Virus record (IMG/VR): IMGVR_UViG_2534682159_000005
Location: 1 to 6,238 of that record
Source: a virus
Taxonomy: Duplodnaviria > Heunggongvirae > Uroviricota > Caudoviricetes
Length of the DNA stretch: 6,238 bases
Reading direction: 5' to 3' (one strand)
In this document: piece after piece, positions 1 through 6,238 of the stretch
Layout: each line of letters begins with the position of its first letter
Numbering within the stretch: the first letter of the stretch is position 1
The notes under the pieces: model-generated
Database searches by the model: none
Told to the model about the DNA's origin: nothing
Seen by the model: only the letters and a program-made list of their open reading frames with translations
Made by a program: the position numbers and the translations under genes

Positions 1-324
1 GTCCACCAGATACTGGCTGGCCACGTACAATATTGATTTCATCAAACTGCTCATCGTCCATTAACAACCCCGCGTGCGTCAGCGCATCCAGCGGTGCTTT
101 CAGAATATTGTCCAGGTCACGGCGGCGCTTATCCGGTGGCTCTGCAATAATTTTTATTGCCAGCCGTCCGGACAGGCTTAATTTCAGTCGCTGCTGGCGA
201 ACAATAAGCGCCACTGCCCGGCGATAACCGCTCCCCGGCTTTTGATACAAAAATATGTGCTGCCACGGCGTCGCCAGTAAGTGTTCACCGTCGGCGGGTA
301 AGGTAAAACCAAATCTATGAGCAT
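1..324 (-). pseudogene. rusA: RusA-family Holliday-junction resolvase, reading frame apparently broken by two +1 frameshifts; 3' end runs off the window start
   Basis: Minus-strand ATG at 324-322 preceded by AAGAGG. The N-terminus MLIDLVLPYPPTVNTYWRRRGSTYF resembles the RusA N-terminus (LPWPPSNNRYYR..RG) and this frame stops at TGA 186-184. RusA-like sequence continues in the next frame (FVSKAGER) and then the third frame (YRRAVALIVRQQRLKLSLSGRLAIKIIAEPPDKRRRDLDNILKAPLDALTHAGLLMDDEQFDEINIVRGQPVSGG, open to position 1). This implies an extra base in the T5 run (plus-strand A-run 249-253) and another near 223-228. Confidence 0.55.
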
Positions 325-336
325 CAGTCACCTCTT

Positions 337-1386
337 TTACCCGAGCACGCCAGTCGCAAAGGCGTGATCAAGAAAACGAAAAATTAACTCAATCTGAGAG
401 CCGTACTTTTTCTCAAACTCCTGCGGGTCTGCATGAAGTTCGTTGTGGTGCTCCCGGCACAACGGTAGCGTGAAAATATCGTGGGCCTTTGTTCCCATTC
501 CCCCCTGACCATGACCAATCAGGTGATGCGGATCGTCAGCTGGCTTACCACAACACGCACACGGCTGTGTCTTTACCCAGCGCGTGTATTTCTCATTAAC
601 CCAACGGCGACGTTTAGGCCGCCTCATGAACGATTCAGGAGACTCCGGATCAACGGCGATACTGACAACCGTTTTTTTCTGTGGTGGATTTTGTTGCTGG
701 TGGACGTGAAGTGGCAGCGCAATATTTTTTGTGCGCTGCTTCAGTATGCTGATGGCTGTCTGTTCTCCCGGTACGATGTCACTCTCACGGTATACGGAGC
801 GGATTTTTTCCGCTGGTAATCCCAGCGAACGACGCGCTACTGCCTCAGGTAGTGCATCCACCACCTGATTGCAGGCCGCCCACCAGGATAATTCGGCCAG
901 CGATAACTCCCTCTCCTGCGTACCGCTTATTGCGTGACGGATGACATCAATCATCCAGGCAACCAGATTCTGCTGAGCAAGTTGATCGAGTGATTCTGAT
1001 GTCTGGTCGCGCAGCTGGTTGTCACAGTGCCAGCACAACACCATCGCGCCGGTACCATAACGGTGAATGACTGTTTCGCTGTGATGATAATCGCCGTGTG
1101 GCCACTGGCAGGATTTCACGTGACGTAATAACCAGTCAGACAGTGCACCTGCACCACCTGCTGCACGAATAACCCGCTCATCGCTGAAAAATGGCAGTAA
1201 TGTTTTATCCTCTGCCAGCGGCTGGCGAACGGCAGGAACGACTCCGGACGGCAGACCGCGCATGTTTTTCGGTTCCGGCTCCACCAGCACCCTGCCGCAA
1301 TGAAAAACAGGCCGTGATTCGCGTCCGGGCTTAAGGACCACCAGGCCAAGTTCCGGCACCAGAACAGGTCGAAGTAATACCCGCAC
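337..1386 (-). CDS. ydfU: YdfU-like DUF968 prophage protein (349 aa) with C-terminal Cys/His HNH-like zinc-binding motif
   Basis: 349-aa ORF from GTG at 1386 (GGAGG 4 nt upstream) to TAA at 339-337. The C-terminal motif CACCGKP..DPHHLIGHG..CREHHNELH is typical of DUF968/HNH-like prophage proteins. Length and position beside hokD and a Q-proximal resolvase match the Qin prophage ydfU; the symbol is from recollection, not a search. Confidence 0.75.
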   Translation of the reverse strand: MRVLLRPVLVPELGLVVLKPGRESRPVFHCGRVLVEPEPKNMRGLPSGVVPAVRQPLAEDKTLLPFFSDERVIRAAGGAGALSDWLLRHVKSCQWPHGDYHHSETVIHRYGTGAMVLCWHCDNQLRDQTSESLDQLAQQNLVAWMIDVIRHAISGTQERELSLAELSWWAACNQVVDALPEAVARRSLGLPAEKIRSVYRESDIVPGEQTAISILKQRTKNIALPLHVHQQQNPPQKKTVVSIAVDPESPESFMRRPKRRRWVNEKYTRWVKTQPCACCGKPADDPHHLIGHGQGGMGTKAHDIFTLPLCREHHNELHADPQEFEKKYGSQIELIFRFLDHAFATGVLG

Positions 1387-1387
1387 G

Positions 1388-1660
1388 TTACCTCCAGATA
1401 CGTTGCTGGAATGTGCGGGACGGACGCGGTGGATGTTCGGAATAAGGGAGCCTGACAGAGATTATCCAGTGACGATAATCGAGGCTGATGGCTTTCTTAA
1501 CCTCGTATCCGCGCCTGCGGTAACACTGAATCAGCCATTCGGCCTGTTCTTCAGTGCATGGGGGATGCTGGTACCAGTCGGTTTTAAATACGTGCGAATG
1601 CCGCCCCCGCTTAATGGCCGGGACGGCTTCAGAATTGTGGGATTTTATACGTTGCGCCAT
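1388..1660 (-). CDS. Small prophage protein of unknown function (90 aa from ATG 1660; the ORF extends to GTG at 1678)
   Basis: ATG at 1660-1658 preceded by GGAGAA with 4-nt spacing. The stop TAA 1390-1388 sits 1 nt before the ydfU-like GTG start, and the GGAGG for that gene lies in its last codons. Occupies the slot that rem holds next to hokD/ydfU in the Qin prophage, but the sequence identity is not verified. Confidence 0.55.
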   Translation of the reverse strand: MAQRIKSHNSEAVPAIKRGRHSHVFKTDWYQHPPCTEEQAEWLIQCYRRRGYEVKKAISLDYRHWIISVRLPYSEHPPRPSRTFQQRIWR

Positions 1661-1710
1661 CGGGTTCTCCGGTGACACAGCAGGTGCCAGTTGTTCAGGC
1701 CGGCGTGCGA

Positions 1711-1740
1711 ATTGTAAACCAGAATGCCAGGAAAAAACAA
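1711..1740 (-). promoter_or_regulatory. Candidate sigma70 promoter for the 90-aa/ydfU-like/rusA transcription unit
   Basis: Minus strand TTGTTT (1740-1735), 18-nt spacer, TACAAT (1716-1711), about 50 nt upstream of ATG 1660. The -35 is weak and overlaps the U-tract of the hokD terminator. Confidence 0.2.
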
Positions 1741-1758
1741 AACCCGCAGAAGCGGGTT
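1731..1758 (-). terminator. Rho-independent terminator downstream of hokD
   Basis: Minus strand AACCCGC-TTCT-GCGGGTT followed by TTGTTTTTT (7-bp GC-rich stem, 4-nt loop, U-tract). On the plus strand the same hairpin has no following T-run, so it is oriented for minus-strand transcripts. Confidence 0.7.
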
Positions 1759-1761
1759 AAG

Positions 1762-1786
1762 TGCGGGTGCGTTGAGGATGCCTGAC
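1762..1786 (-). promoter_or_regulatory. 3' UTR element complementary to the hok mRNA 5' leader (fbi-like fold-back element)
   Basis: Plus-strand 1761-1777 GTGCGGGTGCGTTGAGG is the inverted repeat of plus-strand 2140-2154 CCTCAAGCACCCGCA (15 of 16 with one bulge, extendable to about 25 nt with mismatches). Both lie inside the predicted hokD transcript. Confidence 0.45.
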
Positions 1787-1797
1787 ACATCAGAGGT

Positions 1798-1819
1798 GGC
1801 GAGGGATTTCTCCCTCGCC
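1798..1819 (-). other. Perfect 9-bp stem hairpin with tetraloop immediately 3' of the hokD stop codon
   Basis: Minus strand GGCGAGGGA-GAAA-TCCCTCGCC begins 8 nt after the hokD stop. No U-tract follows, so it is more likely an mRNA structural or stability element than a terminator. Confidence 0.4.
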
Positions 1820-1826
1820 GGGTCTC

Positions 1827-1982
1827 TTACTTCTCAGATTCGTAAGCTGTGAAGACAGCGACCTCCGTCTGGCCGGTTCGGATTCGTACCTCGCAGAGGT
1901 CTTTCCTCGTTACCAGTACCGTTACAACGACGGTAATACAGATGACGATCAGGGCGATTAGCATCGCCTTTTGCTGCTTCAT
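1827..1982 (-). CDS. hokD: Hok/Gef family type I toxin (51 aa), HokD/RelF-like
   Basis: MKQQKAMLIALIVICITVVVTVLVTRKDLCEVRIRTGQTEVAVFTAYESEK: single transmembrane helix followed by the conserved RKDLCEVRIR..EVAVF..YE Hok signature, near-identical in pattern to HokD of E. coli K-12 as I recall it. ATG at 1982-1980 with AGGAG 8 nt upstream. The track ORF (1827..2039) extends 19 codons upstream in frame, probably not used. Confidence 0.85.
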   Translation of the reverse strand: MKQQKAMLIALIVICITVVVTVLVTRKDLCEVRIRTGQTEVAVFTAYESEK

Positions 1983-1995
1983 AGCCTGCTGCTCC

Positions 1996-2024
1996 TTGCC
2001 TTTCGGCGCATAAGAGGCTAATCT
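1996..2024 (+). promoter_or_regulatory. Candidate antisense promoter at the hok start region (possible Sok-like antisense RNA)
   Basis: Plus strand TTGCCT (1996-2001), 17-nt spacer, TAATCT (2019-2024). It would drive a transcript antisense to the hok leader (about 2031 onward). No clean terminator was found, so this is weakly supported. Confidence 0.2.
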
Positions 2025-2130
2025 AAGTGTGCAAGTCATAGATATGGCCTCAGATTAATGTTAAGCGTCCTGCAAGACGCATAATGTTAACTGGGGCTTT
2101 TCTCTGTCTGCCTTACGTCGGCATGCCCGA

Positions 2131-2154
2131 GGCAGACAGCCTCAAGCACCCGCA
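2131..2154 (-). promoter_or_regulatory. 5' leader element of hokD mRNA complementary to the 3' UTR (tac-like fold-back element)
   Basis: Minus-strand leader TGCGGGTGCTTGAGG (2154-2140) pairs with the 3' UTR segment at 1762-1777. It lies just downstream of the candidate -10 TAGAAT and is followed by a 9-bp stem hairpin (2139-2104). Confidence 0.45.
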
Positions 2155-2157
2155 GCA

Positions 2158-2185
2158 ATTCTACTTAACTCTTCTTTCCCCGCAA
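2158..2185 (-). promoter_or_regulatory. Candidate sigma70 promoter for the hokD mRNA
   Basis: Minus strand TTGCGG (2185-2180), 16-nt spacer, TAGAAT (2163-2158). The predicted start near 2151 coincides with the 5' complementary element and gives a transcript of about 420 nt to the terminator at 1731, the size typical of hok mRNAs. Confidence 0.4.
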
Positions 2186-2192
2186 ACCGTTT

Positions 2193-2276
2193 TTATCCCC
2201 AGCGGCAAATCGAATACACCACCAGCGCCACCGCCATTGCAATTCCTACCGTTATGAACGCTTCAGGCCAGGTCAT
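2193..2276 (-). CDS. 27-aa hydrophobic single-helix peptide, translationally coupled to the upstream 171-aa gene (absent from the ORF track because of its size)
   Basis: MTWPEAFITVGIAMAVALVVYSICRWG. The ATG at 2276-2274 overlaps the TGA stop of the 171-aa gene (ATGA). It has a hydrophobic core with a basic/aromatic C-terminus and a TAA stop at 2195-2193. Confidence 0.45.
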   Translation of the reverse strand: MTWPEAFITVGIAMAVALVVYSICRWG

Positions 2277-2788
2277 CGTAAAATATTCTCCTCGTTTATC
2301 AGTCCGTTTCGCTTCAGGTAGTCCATCGCCTTATCCGGTAATTTGCAGTCCGGCTTCGCTTTTTTCAGTTGGCTGACCAGCCGTTTAACCCACATTGCTA
2401 ATTCGCTAACCTGATTGCCGGATGCTGGTGGATTGTCGGCTTTACCCAGAATGGCAGCACAGCAGGCCTCTCTGAGCACCCAGTCAACAGCATCCTTCCA
2501 TGCTCCTGTTTCGACTGGCGGATTCTCACGCTTTACCTGTTCATAAAAGCGCACAGCTTTAACCAGTCCTTCTGATGTCACCGGGACTGGCGGGCCGATG
2601 AATAAGGCCTGAATTTCATAGTTCGGCCTGTCGTTACAATCCTCTTTTGTCGGTACATATTTCCAGTCACCAGCCCACTGCTTCCCCTGAAAGTCTGTAA
2701 CGTCTTTTTTCACGTAGCGATATCGCCATGCAACTGGTTTTGCCTGCCCTGCCGTTTCATGCCCTTCCTGATAATTAATCTCGCTCAT
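2273..2788 (-). CDS. Hypothetical prophage protein (171 aa)
   Basis: ATG at 2788-2786 overlaps the stop of the upstream 58-aa gene (ATGA). Trp/Tyr-rich N-terminal half and a CC pair; no family recognised. Confidence 0.7.
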   Translation of the reverse strand: MSEINYQEGHETAGQAKPVAWRYRYVKKDVTDFQGKQWAGDWKYVPTKEDCNDRPNYEIQALFIGPPVPVTSEGLVKAVRFYEQVKRENPPVETGAWKDAVDWVLREACCAAILGKADNPPASGNQVSELAMWVKRLVSQLKKAKPDCKLPDKAMDYLKRNGLINEENILR

Positions 2789-2961
2789 TCATCGCCCCAC
2801 TCATCACAATATGCTTCGACCGGAGTTTTTCCTGCTTCATAGTCATCACGCCATGCTTCAGCATCGGCGGCACTTCCACCACGTAACTCTGCATAGTCCA
2901 TTAACAGTTCATGCCATTCTTCAAAACTGACGTTGTATTTAGTTGAACCAAAATCAGCCAT
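2785..2961 (-). CDS. Small acidic protein (58 aa), absent from the ORF track
   Basis: MADFGSTKYNVSFEEWHELLMDYAELRGGSAADAEAWRDDYEAGKTPVEAYCDEWGDE. ATG at 2961-2959 with AGGA 8 nt upstream. Its start overlaps the end of the 60-aa gene by 8 nt and its TGA stop overlaps the ATG of the 171-aa gene. Confidence 0.5.
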   Translation of the reverse strand: MADFGSTKYNVSFEEWHELLMDYAELRGGSAADAEAWRDDYEAGKTPVEAYCDEWGDE

Positions 2962-3136
2962 TTTGTTCTTCCTCTTCGTCTTTTATTTCGTGATATGAGT
3001 AATTGCAGTAGTTAAAGAAAATTTCTTTTGCTTCGTCATGAATTTCATCAGGTGTTGCGTCATCGTCCACTTCGAATACATCCTCAAAATCTCCACCGGC
3101 TATTCCCGTTTCAATAATTATTTTGAACTTTCGCAT
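2954..3136 (-). CDS. Small highly acidic protein (60 aa), AT-rich gene
   Basis: MRKFKIIIETGIAGGDFEDVFEVDDDATPDEIHDEAKEIFFNYCNYSYHEIKDEEEEQNG. It is the first ATG in frame after an upstream stop. GC content is visibly lower than the flanking genes, and a 92-bp intergenic region with a palindrome lies upstream. Confidence 0.6.
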   Translation of the reverse strand: MRKFKIIIETGIAGGDFEDVFEVDDDATPDEIHDEAKEIFFNYCNYSYHEIKDEEEEQNG

Positions 3137-3208
3137 TTCATTACCGCCCTGCCGGGCGGTCTCCTGATGTTCTGAGGGTGCAGAAATCCCTCCTGTTAAG
3201 GATTAATT

Positions 3209-3223
3209 TTTAGCAGTGCTAAA
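3209..3223. promoter_or_regulatory. 15-bp palindrome TTTAGCA-G-TGCTAAA in an AT-rich intergenic region (candidate operator/promoter element)
   Basis: Perfect 7-bp arms around one central base, in the 92-bp gap between the 118-aa gene stop (3229) and the 60-aa gene start (3136). Flanked by A/T-rich sequence with -10-like hexamers (TAAAAT). Confidence 0.35.
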
Positions 3224-3228
3224 TTTAA

Positions 3229-3585
3229 TTATTCAGTTCTGGATTTTGTCGCCCTGCGTATCCGCGCTTTCGCGTTACGCTCAATCTGAATTAGCTTTCC
3301 TATATTTTTTCGCCTTTCCTGTTCCTCCAGGCGCAATAGCTTTACATCATCTGCCAGTCTGGTTTCTCTTTTCGCCACAGAGAGCATCCAGTCAAACGGC
3401 TCCACAACTGAACCGCAGATTTTACAGCGGACCTGACGCTCTTTTTCGTCAACCCGAACAGAGGCGTGATGACAATATGGTCTTTCCGATGGCTCATAAA
3501 GAAAATTAACCTGATTACGAGGGTCATCCTCTTTTACCGGAAATAAAACGATATTGCTTAACTCATCCTCTGGTTTTATTTCCAT
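3229..3585 (-). CDS. Zinc-ribbon protein with basic coiled-coil tail (118 aa), function unknown
   Basis: ATG at 3585-3583 with AAGGAGAGGAG just upstream. C-x-H-H ... C-K-I-C-G spacing suggests a zinc ribbon, and the C-terminus is Arg/Lys/Glu-rich. Overlaps the end of the upstream gene by 23 nt. Confidence 0.7.
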   Translation of the reverse strand: MEIKPEDELSNIVLFPVKEDDPRNQVNFLYEPSERPYCHHASVRVDEKERQVRCKICGSVVEPFDWMLSVAKRETRLADDVKLLRLEEQERRKNIGKLIQIERNAKARIRRATKSRTE

Positions 3586-4024
3586 GCTCCTCTCCTTTGA
3601 TGCGAATGCCAGCGACGCGTAATGCGTGTTCTAGGTCAATCAGGTAAAGCCAACTGCCATTTTCTTTAGGTATCATGACTTGTCGCTCATCTGCATTTAT
3701 CGGGTGTCCATATCGAAGGTCGTAGCGAGTCGGTAATTGAACTTCCCGCGCTTCCAGTTCAGCAATGCGCTTACTCCCATCCGAGATAACACCTTCGTAA
3801 TACTCACGTTGCTCGTTGAGTTGTGATTTTGCTTCTTCCAGTCCATCCAGCAAATCAGCGATAATATCCGCTTCCCGATGACGGATGTGACGCTTAAACG
3901 CAGCAAGAGCCGCATCACAATCCCGTTCAGCATTTGGGCTGTCCGGGATAGCCTGATACCACGCCAGCGTCGACTGATAGTTTTGTGCTGCCTCACGAAG
4001 CGCCTCATAGTTAACCTCTCTCAT
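3563..4024 (-). CDS. Ea22-like (ead/Ea22-like family) coiled-coil prophage protein (153 aa)
   Basis: The ATG at 4024-4022 overlaps the TGA stop of the DUF4406 gene (ATGA). The N-terminal NYEALREAA and central AELEAREV coiled-coil segment resemble Ea22-like prophage proteins; assignment is from memory. Confidence 0.65.
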   Translation of the reverse strand: MREVNYEALREAAQNYQSTLAWYQAIPDSPNAERDCDAALAAFKRHIRHREADIIADLLDGLEEAKSQLNEQREYYEGVISDGSKRIAELEAREVQLPTRYDLRYGHPINADERQVMIPKENGSWLYLIDLEHALRVAGIRIKGEEHGNKTRG

Positions 4025-4317
4025 TGAGCCACCTCCTGATAAATCACCGCATGCCCCAGTTTCTCCGCCAGTGCCAGCTCTGCCTTAGCACCCGCTGACC
4101 GCTGCCAGCCATTCAGCATGTAAATCGCATCCACACAACGAATCATTGCCATGCAAATATCCATGTAGTGCGGCTGTGTCAGCCCGTCCGGAAGTACTGC
4201 CGGGTTTAAGACGGTATGCCCTTCCCGTTTCAGTGCTTCTTCCGCCCTGTGAAATGCCTCGCGGTTGAAATTTTCATATCCCGTCATTGGACCGGCGATA
4301 TAAATTCTCACCCTCAC
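4021..4317 (-). CDS. DUF4406 protein (nucleoside 2-deoxyribosyltransferase-like fold), 98 aa
   Basis: MRVRIYIAGPMTG..FNREAFHRAEEALKREGHTVLNPA..YMDICMAMIRCVDAIYMLNGWQRSAGAKAELALAEKLGHAV matches the DUF4406 signature (IAGPMTG, NPA, LxGWxxSxGA). The GTG start at 4317-4315 has AGGAGG 8 nt upstream and overlaps the TGA stop of the HTH gene (GTGA). Confidence 0.85.
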   Translation of the reverse strand: MRVRIYIAGPMTGYENFNREAFHRAEEALKREGHTVLNPAVLPDGLTQPHYMDICMAMIRCVDAIYMLNGWQRSAGAKAELALAEKLGHAVIYQEVAQ

Positions 4318-4595
4318 GCCTGAACCCTCCTGTCGAAATAAACGTAGTTATTCACTATGCGCAGCGGCATGCCTAATTTTCTGGCAATTTCCCTTCTTTG
4401 CATGCCTCTCTGATGCAGTTGCCGCGCCAGCTCAATATCACGCTGAGAATATTTTGCCGACGGGTGAAAATCACCACGTAACATCATGCTGATGCCCAGC
4501 TCCCGTGCCTTCGTTCTCACTGCCGCTTCAGTTCGTCCGATAAGTGCGCCAATGCTTTTTACCTTCATCGTTCCCGCACACTGCCGGAGTATCAT
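4314..4595 (-). CDS. Small helix-turn-helix DNA-binding protein (about 93 aa); start uncertain
   Basis: Two HTH-like segments (KSIGALIGRTEAAVRTKARELGI and MQRREIARKLGMPLRIVNNYV, the second resembling NinH/Fis-type HTH). The track ORF starts at 4718 inside the upstream gene. Candidate starts are ATG 4595, ATG 4568, or GTG 4631 (which overlaps the upstream TGA stop). Confidence 0.55.
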   Translation of the reverse strand: MILRQCAGTMKVKSIGALIGRTEAAVRTKARELGISMMLRGDFHPSAKYSQRDIELARQLHQRGMQRREIARKLGMPLRIVNNYVYFDRRVQA

Positions 4596-4627
4596 GATTT
4601 CCGCCCGGCACCACGTCTTCCACCCAC

Positions 4628-5344
4628 TCACCGCTGCTGTTCTCTGGTGGCGGTAATATCCCGGAGAATATCCCGGCACTTGTTCAGCTCCCGCAGCGCG
4701 GCGCAGACTCGCTCCCACTTCTGAACCTGACCTTTTGCCCGGCGCAGCTCGCGGTTAGCCACATGCAGCGATGGTAGAATCAGGTCATCTGCTTTCGTTT
4801 CGGTGACCGATGGCTGTAACTTCACAATGTCTTCCACGATTTCTGTTTTCATTTCTTCCTGTGTCGTCGTTTCCTGGACTGGTAACGCAACACCTGCTGG
4901 CTGAGGAAAGGCTTTACCATCGGTTTCCGCTACGGATGCAGCTTCCGGCTCTGCCGGTAAATCAGCGCCCGGTATGCAGTAACGAAATTTACCGCCCTGA
5001 TTCACGCGAATCAGACGCCCTTTGCTGATTGCCATGGCCAGCGATGAATTCGCCCGGCGGGAGGTAATCCCGAACATCAGTGCCAGCTCATCCGCCGTTT
5101 GTGGGCCATGTTGTTCAATCGCCTCAGTCAGCATTTGCGCTGTCACTTTCGGTACCGGTGACACTGGTTCACTTTCACCTGCCTGAGTCAGCCACCACAT
5201 CGACCCCTTGTTATCCGCTTCACCACGGCGCTTCAGTTTCCACAGTTCGTTGACCGCATCTTCACGGCTGATTCCAAGGCGGGCCGCCACTACCTGTGAA
5301 GAGGCTCTTTTCAGTGCTTTCAGTGCGTCAAATACGGTTTCCAT
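4628..5344 (-). CDS. Prophage protein with two winged-helix-like domains and an acidic linker (238 aa)
   Basis: The track ORF starts at TTG 5362, but ATG 5344-5342 has GGAGG 8 nt upstream. Two HTH-like segments ([25 protein letters not shown] and [31 protein letters not shown]). Sits 33 nt downstream of the P-like gene, the slot occupied by ren in lambda. Confidence 0.7.
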
Positions 5345-5377
5345 TAAAATTTCCTCCGACAAAATCGTTTCCCAGAT

Positions 5378-6040
5378 TCAAATAAAACCAGCAGCCTTCC
5401 GGCGTTCGTATTCCTGTTTCAGCCGTTCAATTGGCGTTGGCCCTTTCGGGTGTTTCGCCCCTTCCAGTTGTCGTCGCACTGGCGGAACACTCATCCCGTT
5501 ACCAACATGCTTTGCCCATTTCGTCAGTTGCCGTTCCGCAAGTCGTTTTAACTCACCCTGCGTCATCTGGCGCTCAATCCCTCTGGTACGCATTTCGAGG
5601 CAGATGTGGTACAGCACAGGCTGTGGCCACGGGTATTTATCACTCCCGTCGTATCGCCAGGATTCATTGCGCCAGCGCCGGTACTCTTCCATCACGGCAT
5701 CCACCGTAAGACCAAATGGATTTGCCCCACTCTCCGAAATCAGCGCAACAAACTCAGCCAGGTCCGGGGGCCACGTTTCACCCGCCCGGCAGCGGTCCAT
5801 GCACTGACGACAGACCTGCCGGATTTGCTGTTCAGTCATCGCACCAATCTGGGCAATCCAGAGCTTCGAAGGTGCGGCCCCGTTCTTCTGAGTCCAGCGG
5901 TTCGAATACACCTCCCCCATAAGCTCCCACAGCTTCCAGGCCGTTTCCGTTGCTGATAAATCCGTTTTCACGTTCCCACTGTTCGCGTGCTGCCCGGATT
6001 TCCTGAACTGCCCGTGATGCCGTGCCACCTGATGCTGCAT
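5378..6040 (-). CDS. Lambda P-like replication protein (DnaB helicase loader); N-terminal boundary uncertain
   Basis: The C-terminal two thirds align by motif with lambda P (P..FVA.. segment, then YPW...Y...M....T..EL.R.A..L). ATG 6040 has AGGGGG 6 nt upstream, and an alternative ATG at 5920 has GGGAG upstream. The 5' 209 nt overlap the upstream gene in another frame. Confidence 0.7.
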
Positions 6041-6238
6041 GGCTTACCCCCTTGCTGACTGGTTTTACCTGTGCCCTGACGTGCTGCACGTGACGGGCAA
6101 ATTTCTGCTCCCACTGAACCTGCGTGAAAACCTTCCCCTCCGCCATCCAGTAATCCCGGAATGCGGCAAGCTCAGCAGGTGTAAATTCCGGCTCAGGCAG
6201 AGCCATACCCCACACTGCTGCCCGTTGTCGAAAATCCG
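5832..6238 (-). CDS. Replication initiator / replisome organiser with DnaT-like C-terminal domain (partial; 5' end beyond the window)
   Basis: The frame is open to the window edge. [42 protein letters not shown] closely parallels the E. coli DnaT C-terminal domain ([41 protein letters not shown]) as I recall it. It lies immediately upstream of the P-like gene, the position of O. Confidence 0.7.

Follow-up and report, generated by a model that had tools for sequence, protein, structure and literature searches.

The Sok RNA of the plasmid R1 locus parB is a 64-nt antisense RNA whose 11-nt 5' tail recognises a loop of the 3'-trimmed and refolded hok mRNA; translation of mok is thereby blocked, and the duplex is cut by RNase III (PMC1635323). 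For R1 it has been shown that Sok is unstable and the hok mRNA stable, and that Sok relieves the toxicity of Hok; for the Sp5 homologue this has been shown in part. A phage-borne counterpart, sokW, was annotated in the Stx2 phage 933W (AF125520) in 1999, and its close relative in Sp5 was tested experimentally in 2021 (Takada et al. 2021, PMC8621323). In Sp5, northern blots probed with the complement of nt 1-30 showed the sokW RNA, and substitutions in the -10 hexamer of its promoter unmasked the toxicity of HokW with loss of antitoxin activity; protection was partly regained when sokW was given in trans, and depended in part on RNase III and Hfq (PMC8621323). On treatment with mitomycin C, sokW vanishes while HokW appears and accelerates lysis, and the hokW-sokW pair makes both lysis and phage release faster after induction (PMC8621323). 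HokW and the Hok of R1 are 44% identical (PMC8621323). The primers and probes of the Sp5 study agree with the 933W sequence in this region.

Here we describe a locus in a 6,238-nt stretch of viral DNA (Caudoviricetes; IMG/VR record IMGVR_UViG_2534682159_000005, positions 1 to 6,238), hereafter the window, in which a promoter-like pair reading across a hok leader had been taken to mark a possible Sok-like antisense RNA. We conclude with high confidence that window positions 2031-2101 (+) encode the Sok antisense antitoxin RNA of a hok/sok module located in the nin/Q region of an Escherichia coli (STEC) lambdoid prophage, and that the module is a close allele of the hokW/sokW systems of 933W and Sp5. 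The element is in this sense already known, and is an ordinary hok/sok component. Established for the locus itself are its homology in sequence and position, the architecture and conservation of the RNA, the asymmetry of its hairpin between the two strands, and the completeness of the module.

Identity and genomic setting

The module is 88.8% identical to that of 933W, in whose record mokW and hokW are annotated along with a misc_RNA, "SokW antisense RNA". Pairwise alignment carries sokW (L001, 1777-1847) onto window 2031-2101; the antisense transcript that the original prediction had placed at 2031-2100 therefore agrees with the mapped sokW except for a single base at the 3' end, and its Sok-like interpretation is further backed by the geometry of sokC in K-12 and by the northern blot and -10 mutant of Sp5 (PMC8621323). 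The window and the 933W/Sp5 loci share their architecture, a comparable lambdoid-prophage gene neighbourhood, a 71-nt Sok, an identical -35 hexamer, and a long hairpin with an apical GCGUC stem. They differ at 13 of the 71 Sok positions, eight of which lie within the first 15 nt, while 51 of the 56 positions after nt 15 are identical; the recognition tails match at just 7 of 15 positions (GCAAGUCAUAGAUAU in the window against GUUCAGCAUGGAUUG in SokW), the -10 hexamer is TAATCT rather than TAACCT, and the apical loop reads CUGCAA rather than UUGCCG.

A 601-bp segment containing the hok/sok module (window 1700-2300) recurs with 100% identity in at least nine complete STEC chromosomes, where it is flanked on one side by replication gene P and on the other by a block comprising RusA and the Q antiterminator.

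The toxin gene, mok and the hok mRNA

The hok gene (1827..1982, minus strand) encodes a 51-residue protein that matches the Pfam family PF01848, HOK_GEF (82.4 bits against a cutoff of 22; E = 1.6e-23), and phrog_251, "MokW-like host killing" (E = 2.6e-32), and differs from HokW at 5 of 51 residues. In frame with it, the list of open reading frames contains a 70-residue mok reading frame (1827..2039, minus) of the same length and position as mokW of 933W. The mok Shine-Dalgarno sequence GAGG (2051..2048) and its AUG (2039..2037) both fall within the region complementary to Sok, 2031-2101, and the start codon is almost invariant among relatives (pairwise difference 0.015).

A full-length hok mRNA of 415 nt (1737..2151, minus) is predicted from the start of the match to Rfam RF01794 at 2151 and from its fold, which has an energy of -173 kcal/mol (z = -7.3). 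In that fold the 5' end of the transcript, GGGUGCUUGAGG (2151..2140), pairs with CCUCAACGCACCC (1777..1765), which corresponds in silico to the tac/fbi fold-back. A terminator scan finds a clear terminator at the end of this transcript, at 1758..1741, and a putative promoter read from the sequence, TTGCGG (2185..2180) and TAGAAT (2163..2158) with a 16-nt spacer (2158..2185, minus), stops 6 nt before G2151.

When the leader (2151..1977) is folded in isolation, three elements appear: a stem at the 5' end that closes on AAAAGCCCC, a hairpin in the middle, and a further hairpin that would be the target of Sok (2014..2051, minus), with the base GAGGC/GCCUC. The 13-nt loop of the latter (2038..2026) includes the mok AUG and CUUG, a YUNR-type motif, and is complementary in silico to nt 1-8 of Sok. 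The base stem is fully paired (100%) in 26 unique relatives, and the hairpin is also present in the Rfam consensus structure; RNAalifold recovered from it only the invariant 5-bp base, because the interior pairs lie in different registers in different alleles. The AAAAGCCCC box, which pairs with the 5' end of the hok mRNA, is the complement of the U-rich TTTTCTCT/GGGGCUUUU of Sok.

Two neighbouring features were recorded in passing. The 3' untranslated region of the hok mRNA, window 1737-1818 (minus), contains the hairpin GCGAGGGAGAAAUCCCUCGCC followed by the terminator; a match of this segment to isrK, a small RNA of the Salmonella Gifsy-1 prophage, scored 29.3 bits against a gathering threshold of 50 (E = 0.002) and probably reflects only a resemblance of hairpin and terminator, and the sub-threshold Rfam matches to ceN48 and CsrC were likewise read as similarity of hairpin or terminator shape, not as family membership. 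On the other side of the module, an unannotated hydrophobic reading frame of 27 residues, MTWPEAFITVGIAMAVALVVYSICRWG (window 2193-2276, minus), ends just upstream of the hok promoter; its start overlaps the stop codon of the upstream 171-residue gene (ATGA). Its protein sequence is conserved at 60-96% in 88 phage records, some of which list it as a "hypothetical protein", and searches of Pfam and PHROG gave no match to it.

The state of these components bears on whether the module could be a decayed remnant, in which Sok is perhaps still transcribed but has lost control over a toxic Hok, like the inactive K-12 copies. Many chromosomal hok/sok loci are indeed inactive (PMC1635323), and some of the relatives sampled here are visibly disrupted or decayed (L007, L019 and L006). 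The window module, however, has no visible defect: the hok and mok reading frames, the tac/fbi pairing, both predicted promoters, the terminators and the target hairpin are all intact. Together with the complete identity of the 601-bp segment among the STEC genomes and the functionality of the 89%-identical Sp5 module (PMC8621323), this makes decay a very unlikely description of the locus, and we proceed on the view that the module is a complete hokW/sokW allele.

The sok promoter

The hexamers named in the original prediction occur at exactly the positions expected, TTGCCT at 1996-2001 (+) and TAATCT at 2019-2024 (+), separated by a 17-nt spacer. The -35 hexamer overlaps the hok Shine-Dalgarno sequence AAGGAG (1997..1992, minus) by 2 nt and lies 14-19 nt upstream of the hok ATG (1982-1980, minus). 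As a pattern the pair is undistinguished. Only 7 of its 12 positions agree with the sigma-70 consensus, and a consensus promoter scan with a threshold of 9/12 did not call it; sites of equal quality number 54 in the window, compared with 49.7 +/- 7.8 in shuffled sequences, which is no enrichment. Being no better than chance in this respect, the pair must draw its credibility from position and homology.

Both hexamers are conserved among 45 aligned relatives. The TTG of the -35 hexamer is invariant in these sequences, in which it occurs as TTGCCT or TTGACC, and the window hexamer aligns with TTGCGC of the R1-type locus. TAATCT is a common natural variant among the relatives, homologous to the TAACCT of 933W and Sp5, and it was this hexamer, at the site corresponding to window 2019-2024, that was mutated in the promoter-less Sp5 construct (primer YO-421, PMC8621323). 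Alignment with the sok promoters of 933W/Sp5, the R1-type plasmid and the K-12 sokC locus thus makes TTGCCT-17-TAATCT a credible candidate promoter. By positional homology to sokW, sokC and the R1-type locus, it would be a cis-antisense promoter situated within the translation-initiation region of hok and pointing away from that gene.

The resemblance to R1 extends beyond the promoter. In both systems the promoter occupies the hok translation-initiation region with a 17-nt spacing and the transcript is antisense to the mok translation-initiation region; both RNAs have a single-stranded 5' tail, a single stem-loop and a U-rich tail, and both hok mRNAs fold back. The R1-type promoter reads TTGCGC-17-TATCCT, and sequence identity with the window is limited to a series of shared anchors (CTCCTTGC, TAAGAGGCTA, CAT, GCCTC, GGGGCT and TCTGCC). 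The R1 module is carried by a plasmid and that of the window by a prophage.

In two relatives, L007 (E. coli ECDA1023) and L019 (Kluyvera sp.), the sok promoter and the leader are replaced, immediately after the hok Shine-Dalgarno sequence, by an unrelated sequence beginning TGTCAACGCAAAGCAGAAGTGTCACCTTCGGTGCGAAACAG, a pattern suggestive of disruption of the module by insertion or rearrangement.

Sok RNA and its terminator

The predicted Sok RNA is 71 nt long (2031..2101, +), its ends being placed by homology to sokW. The 5' end would be G2031, 7 nt after the -10 hexamer, and the 3' end would fall between 2101, as in the sokW annotation, and ~2107, by analogy with the end of sokC in RefSeq. 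The sokC ncRNA of K-12 begins 8 nt inside mokC, and in the window G2031 is equally far inside mok, counted from the ATG at 2039. Folding of 2031-2101 on the plus strand gives -27.6 kcal/mol (z = -5.1), a stability equalled by none of 200 shuffled sequences. The architecture that defines the family (PMC1635323), namely a 5' tail of at least ~11 nt, one stem-loop and a U-rich 3' end, is represented here by a 15-nt tail, a 53-nt hairpin and UUUUCUCU, which comes after the hairpin. The tail (2031..2045, +), to which target recognition is ascribed, is unpaired in both the minimum free energy and the centroid folds and spans the mok start codon (2039-2037).

The hairpin (2046..2098, +) has three tiers: an outer stem of GGCCUCAG and CUGGGGCU; a middle stem formed by the two TAATGTTAA repeats, which pair with an offset of one base (2055-2063 with 2082-2090); and an apical stem, GCGUC/GACGC, closed by the loop CUGCAA. 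The original prediction had noted the 9-bp direct repeat TAATGTTAA and the small hairpin between its copies, and both are exactly as it described them, at 2056-2064 and 2082-2090 for the repeat and, for the hairpin, at 2065-2069 (GCGTC), 2070-2075 (CTGCAA) and 2076-2080 (GACGC). The two copies of the repeat form the opposite arms, 5' and 3', of a single hairpin, and the repeat exists because UAAUGUUAA is nearly self-complementary, two G·U pairs being the exception.

Directly after the hairpin lies the U-rich tract TTTTCTCT (2098..2105, +), a predicted intrinsic terminator tail; GGGGCTTTT is almost invariant among relatives. The intrinsic terminator of Sok is the hairpin 2046-2098 with this U-run. 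The original prediction had found no convincing terminator, and on this point it has to be amended, since the hairpin it described, together with the U-run, is itself the terminator. A simple terminator scan, which permits loops of up to 8 nt, also failed to call it, the interior of the outer stem being far longer. A plus-strand reading frame of 57 codons that covers the 3' end of Sok (2084-2257) was dismissed as a mechanical ORF, having no start context and no annotation in any relative.

Conservation among relatives and strand of the hairpin

Relatives of the locus were compared as a set of 67 unique sequences from Escherichia, Kluyvera, Photorhabdus, Erwinia, Pantoea and Pseudocitrobacter. 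A single terminal hairpin followed by a U-run is present in 66 of them; the exception, the decayed locus L032, keeps the hairpin and lacks the run. The 5' stretch is fully unpaired over 10-17 nt in 58 of the 67, and the remaining nine have a weak small stem. The 67 loci fall into two length classes, of 48-53 nt and 69-72 nt, with the window in the long, sokW-type class: its RNA has the ~71-nt length, the UUAAUGUUA/UAAUGUUAA arms and the apical GCGUC...GACGC of that subgroup, features that also occur in 933W and in 43 further unique loci.

The arms and apex of the sokW type are absent from the short-class loci of sokC-like, Photorhabdus and Erwinia origin (those compared were L011-L014, L020, L025-L037, L049 and L084). 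Relative to the sokC-like and Photorhabdus class, the long class has an apical extension of ~20 nt (window 2064-2081, +), consisting of the GCGUC stem together with the distal portion of the TAATGTTAA arms; in Rfam this extension appears as a 16-nt insertion in the loop. The same extension distinguishes the window RNA from the 64-nt Sok of R1, with its 11-nt tail and shorter hairpin. sokC, like sokA, sokB and sokE of the K-12 chromosome, shares the flanks GGCCUC...GGGGCUUUUCUCU with the window; it belongs to the short-hairpin class (49-53 nt in our reconstruction, 59 nt in RefSeq), without the TAATGTTAA arms and the GCGUC apex.

Conservation of this kind calls for care, as the overlapping hok leader also demands that the region be maintained, and sequence conservation alone is no proof of an antisense RNA. 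The promoter-like pair could in principle be a chance occurrence and positions 1996-2100 be conserved solely as the minus-strand hok leader, with no antisense RNA made from this allele. The leader does require the region for its own folding, the promoter pattern is, as described above, no more frequent than in shuffled sequences, and the Rfam model named "sok" itself matches the minus strand: RF01794 aligns over its full length (1-157) with window 2151..1977 (minus; 113.3 bits against a gathering threshold of 59, E = 5e-26). The same model, however, matches K-12 (L119, 402-554, minus; 118 bits) on the strand opposite to the RefSeq sokC and ends at the hokC ATG. Lying on the hok-sense strand in both genomes, it represents the hok leader; Sok proper corresponds to the complementary strand of the middle of the model.

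The hairpin segment folds with an energy of -27.1 kcal/mol on the plus strand and -19.3 kcal/mol on the minus strand, a difference of 8 kcal/mol in favour of the former. Across the 45 unique relatives with a long hairpin, standard pairs occupy 97.9% of the pair cells; sliding the partners lowers this to 33-45%. At four paired positions G·U is the combination found most often in these 45 sequences: it is invariant at two of them and occurs in 44 of 45 at a third; the closing pair of the hairpin is G·U in 35 and A-U in nine. On the opposite strand a conserved G·U becomes an A·C mismatch, which points to constraint on a plus-strand RNA beyond that imposed by the hok leader alone. Compensatory change occurs at 2 of 22 pairs (in Kluyvera-type loci, for instance, the basal G-C pair of the apical stem has become A-U), a thin record of covariation, as close relatives barely vary, and one that is weak as independent proof. 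Considering in addition that the homologous RNA was detected in Sp5 and required its -10 hexamer (PMC8621323), and that RefSeq places sokC at the equivalent site on the same strand, we regard chance as an extremely improbable account of the pair and retain the interpretation of 2031-2101 (+) as a Sok RNA.

A hypervariable recognition tail

Against this conserved background, the part of Sok that would contact its target varies widely, and so does the target loop. Comparison of window 2031-2045 (+) with the matching columns in L003-L118 gave a mean pairwise difference of 0.59 for Sok nt 2-6 and 0.40-0.46 for nt 10-16, compared with 0.04-0.07 in the hairpin, 0.05-0.11 in the sok promoter and 0.035-0.10 at four-fold degenerate sites of hok; duplicates were removed from the sample by their leader region, and this inflates the diversity seen there, yet the hairpin and the promoter, which belong to the same de-duplicated stretch, remain low. 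Variability in the tail exceeds that elsewhere in the locus more than 10-fold, and does so even where the hok genes are identical. The sample contains 16 tail alleles. Ten different tails occur on 17 loci whose hok is identical at the nucleotide level, and five on nine loci sharing another identical hok, a tally that excludes the window, which has A, not G or C, before TAAGAGGC. Conversely, identical tails recur on backbones that otherwise differ: 933W sokW and K-12 sokC agree in nt 1-9 of the tail, and the window tail is that of L115.

From these patterns we tentatively propose, as a possibility we hold at somewhat less than even, that a hypervariable specificity cassette is formed by nt 1 to ~16 of SokW-type RNAs and by the corresponding parts of the target hairpin, its loop and 5' arm, and that this cassette is exchanged, or turns over, independently of the remaining module. 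A plausible driver would be diversifying selection on which co-resident or incoming prophage modules silence one another. Co-resident copies with differing tails (L005 and L009, among others) were set aside as evidence of orthogonality; with 16 alleles, most random pairs differ in any case. No description of a hypervariable Sok tail was found in the literature searched, and the authors of a 2026 survey of Hok diversity state that Sok lay outside their analysis.

Related to this is the idea that Sok, besides acting in cis, targets in trans the mRNAs of other hok loci in its cell, or is itself neutralised by those mRNAs, the variable tail deciding which co-resident modules cross-talk. E. coli genomes offer the opportunity, with a median of two and up to 12 related places each; the sharing of tail alleles between otherwise dissimilar loci and the partial dependence of SokW antitoxin activity on Hfq (PMC8621323) also accord with it. 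All long-hairpin alleles, however, are highly complementary outside the tail, and specificity may not rest on the tail alone. We consider such action in trans unlikely; it is in any event compatible with the main explanation, that of a Sok RNA serving its own module.

Proposed mode of control

Homology to R1 and Sp5 suggests how the window module might operate. Transcription in the window allele, the exact ends of its RNA, the instability of Sok and the participation of RNase III and Hfq would all be as in these homologues. A constitutive TTGCCT-17-TAATCT promoter inside the hok translation-initiation region would fire away from hok and yield an RNA of ~71 nt with a 15-nt single-stranded 5' tail, the long hairpin and the U-run, the last two ending transcription. 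The full-length hok mRNA (2151 to ~1737, minus) would be locked through pairing of its 5' and 3' ends until trimming at the 3' end allowed the leader to refold and to expose the hairpin loop 2038..2026, complementary to the 5' end of Sok. Sok would dock at this loop and then zip over the mok Shine-Dalgarno sequence and AUG, blocking translation of mok and, by coupling, that of hok, whereupon RNase III would cut the duplex. Were sok transcription to stop, upon prophage induction or transcription shut-off, the unstable Sok would be lost and Hok would be made.

Annotation and implications

In the RefSeq records of the identical genomes only Hok is annotated ("Hok/Gef family protein"), and the sok RNA is left unannotated. 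The appropriate label for the stretch is sok antitoxin RNA, belonging to a prophage hok/sok module of the hokW/sokW type. A pipeline that trusts the strand and the 157-nt extent of the Rfam "sok" model would misplace Sok. Since the Sp5 homologue speeds lysis and release, the intact window-type allele carried by other STEC prophages is probably functional, by analogy with that system. A fast-evolving tail could, moreover, make the specificity of the antitoxin, and cross-talk among multiple prophage modules, directly testable.
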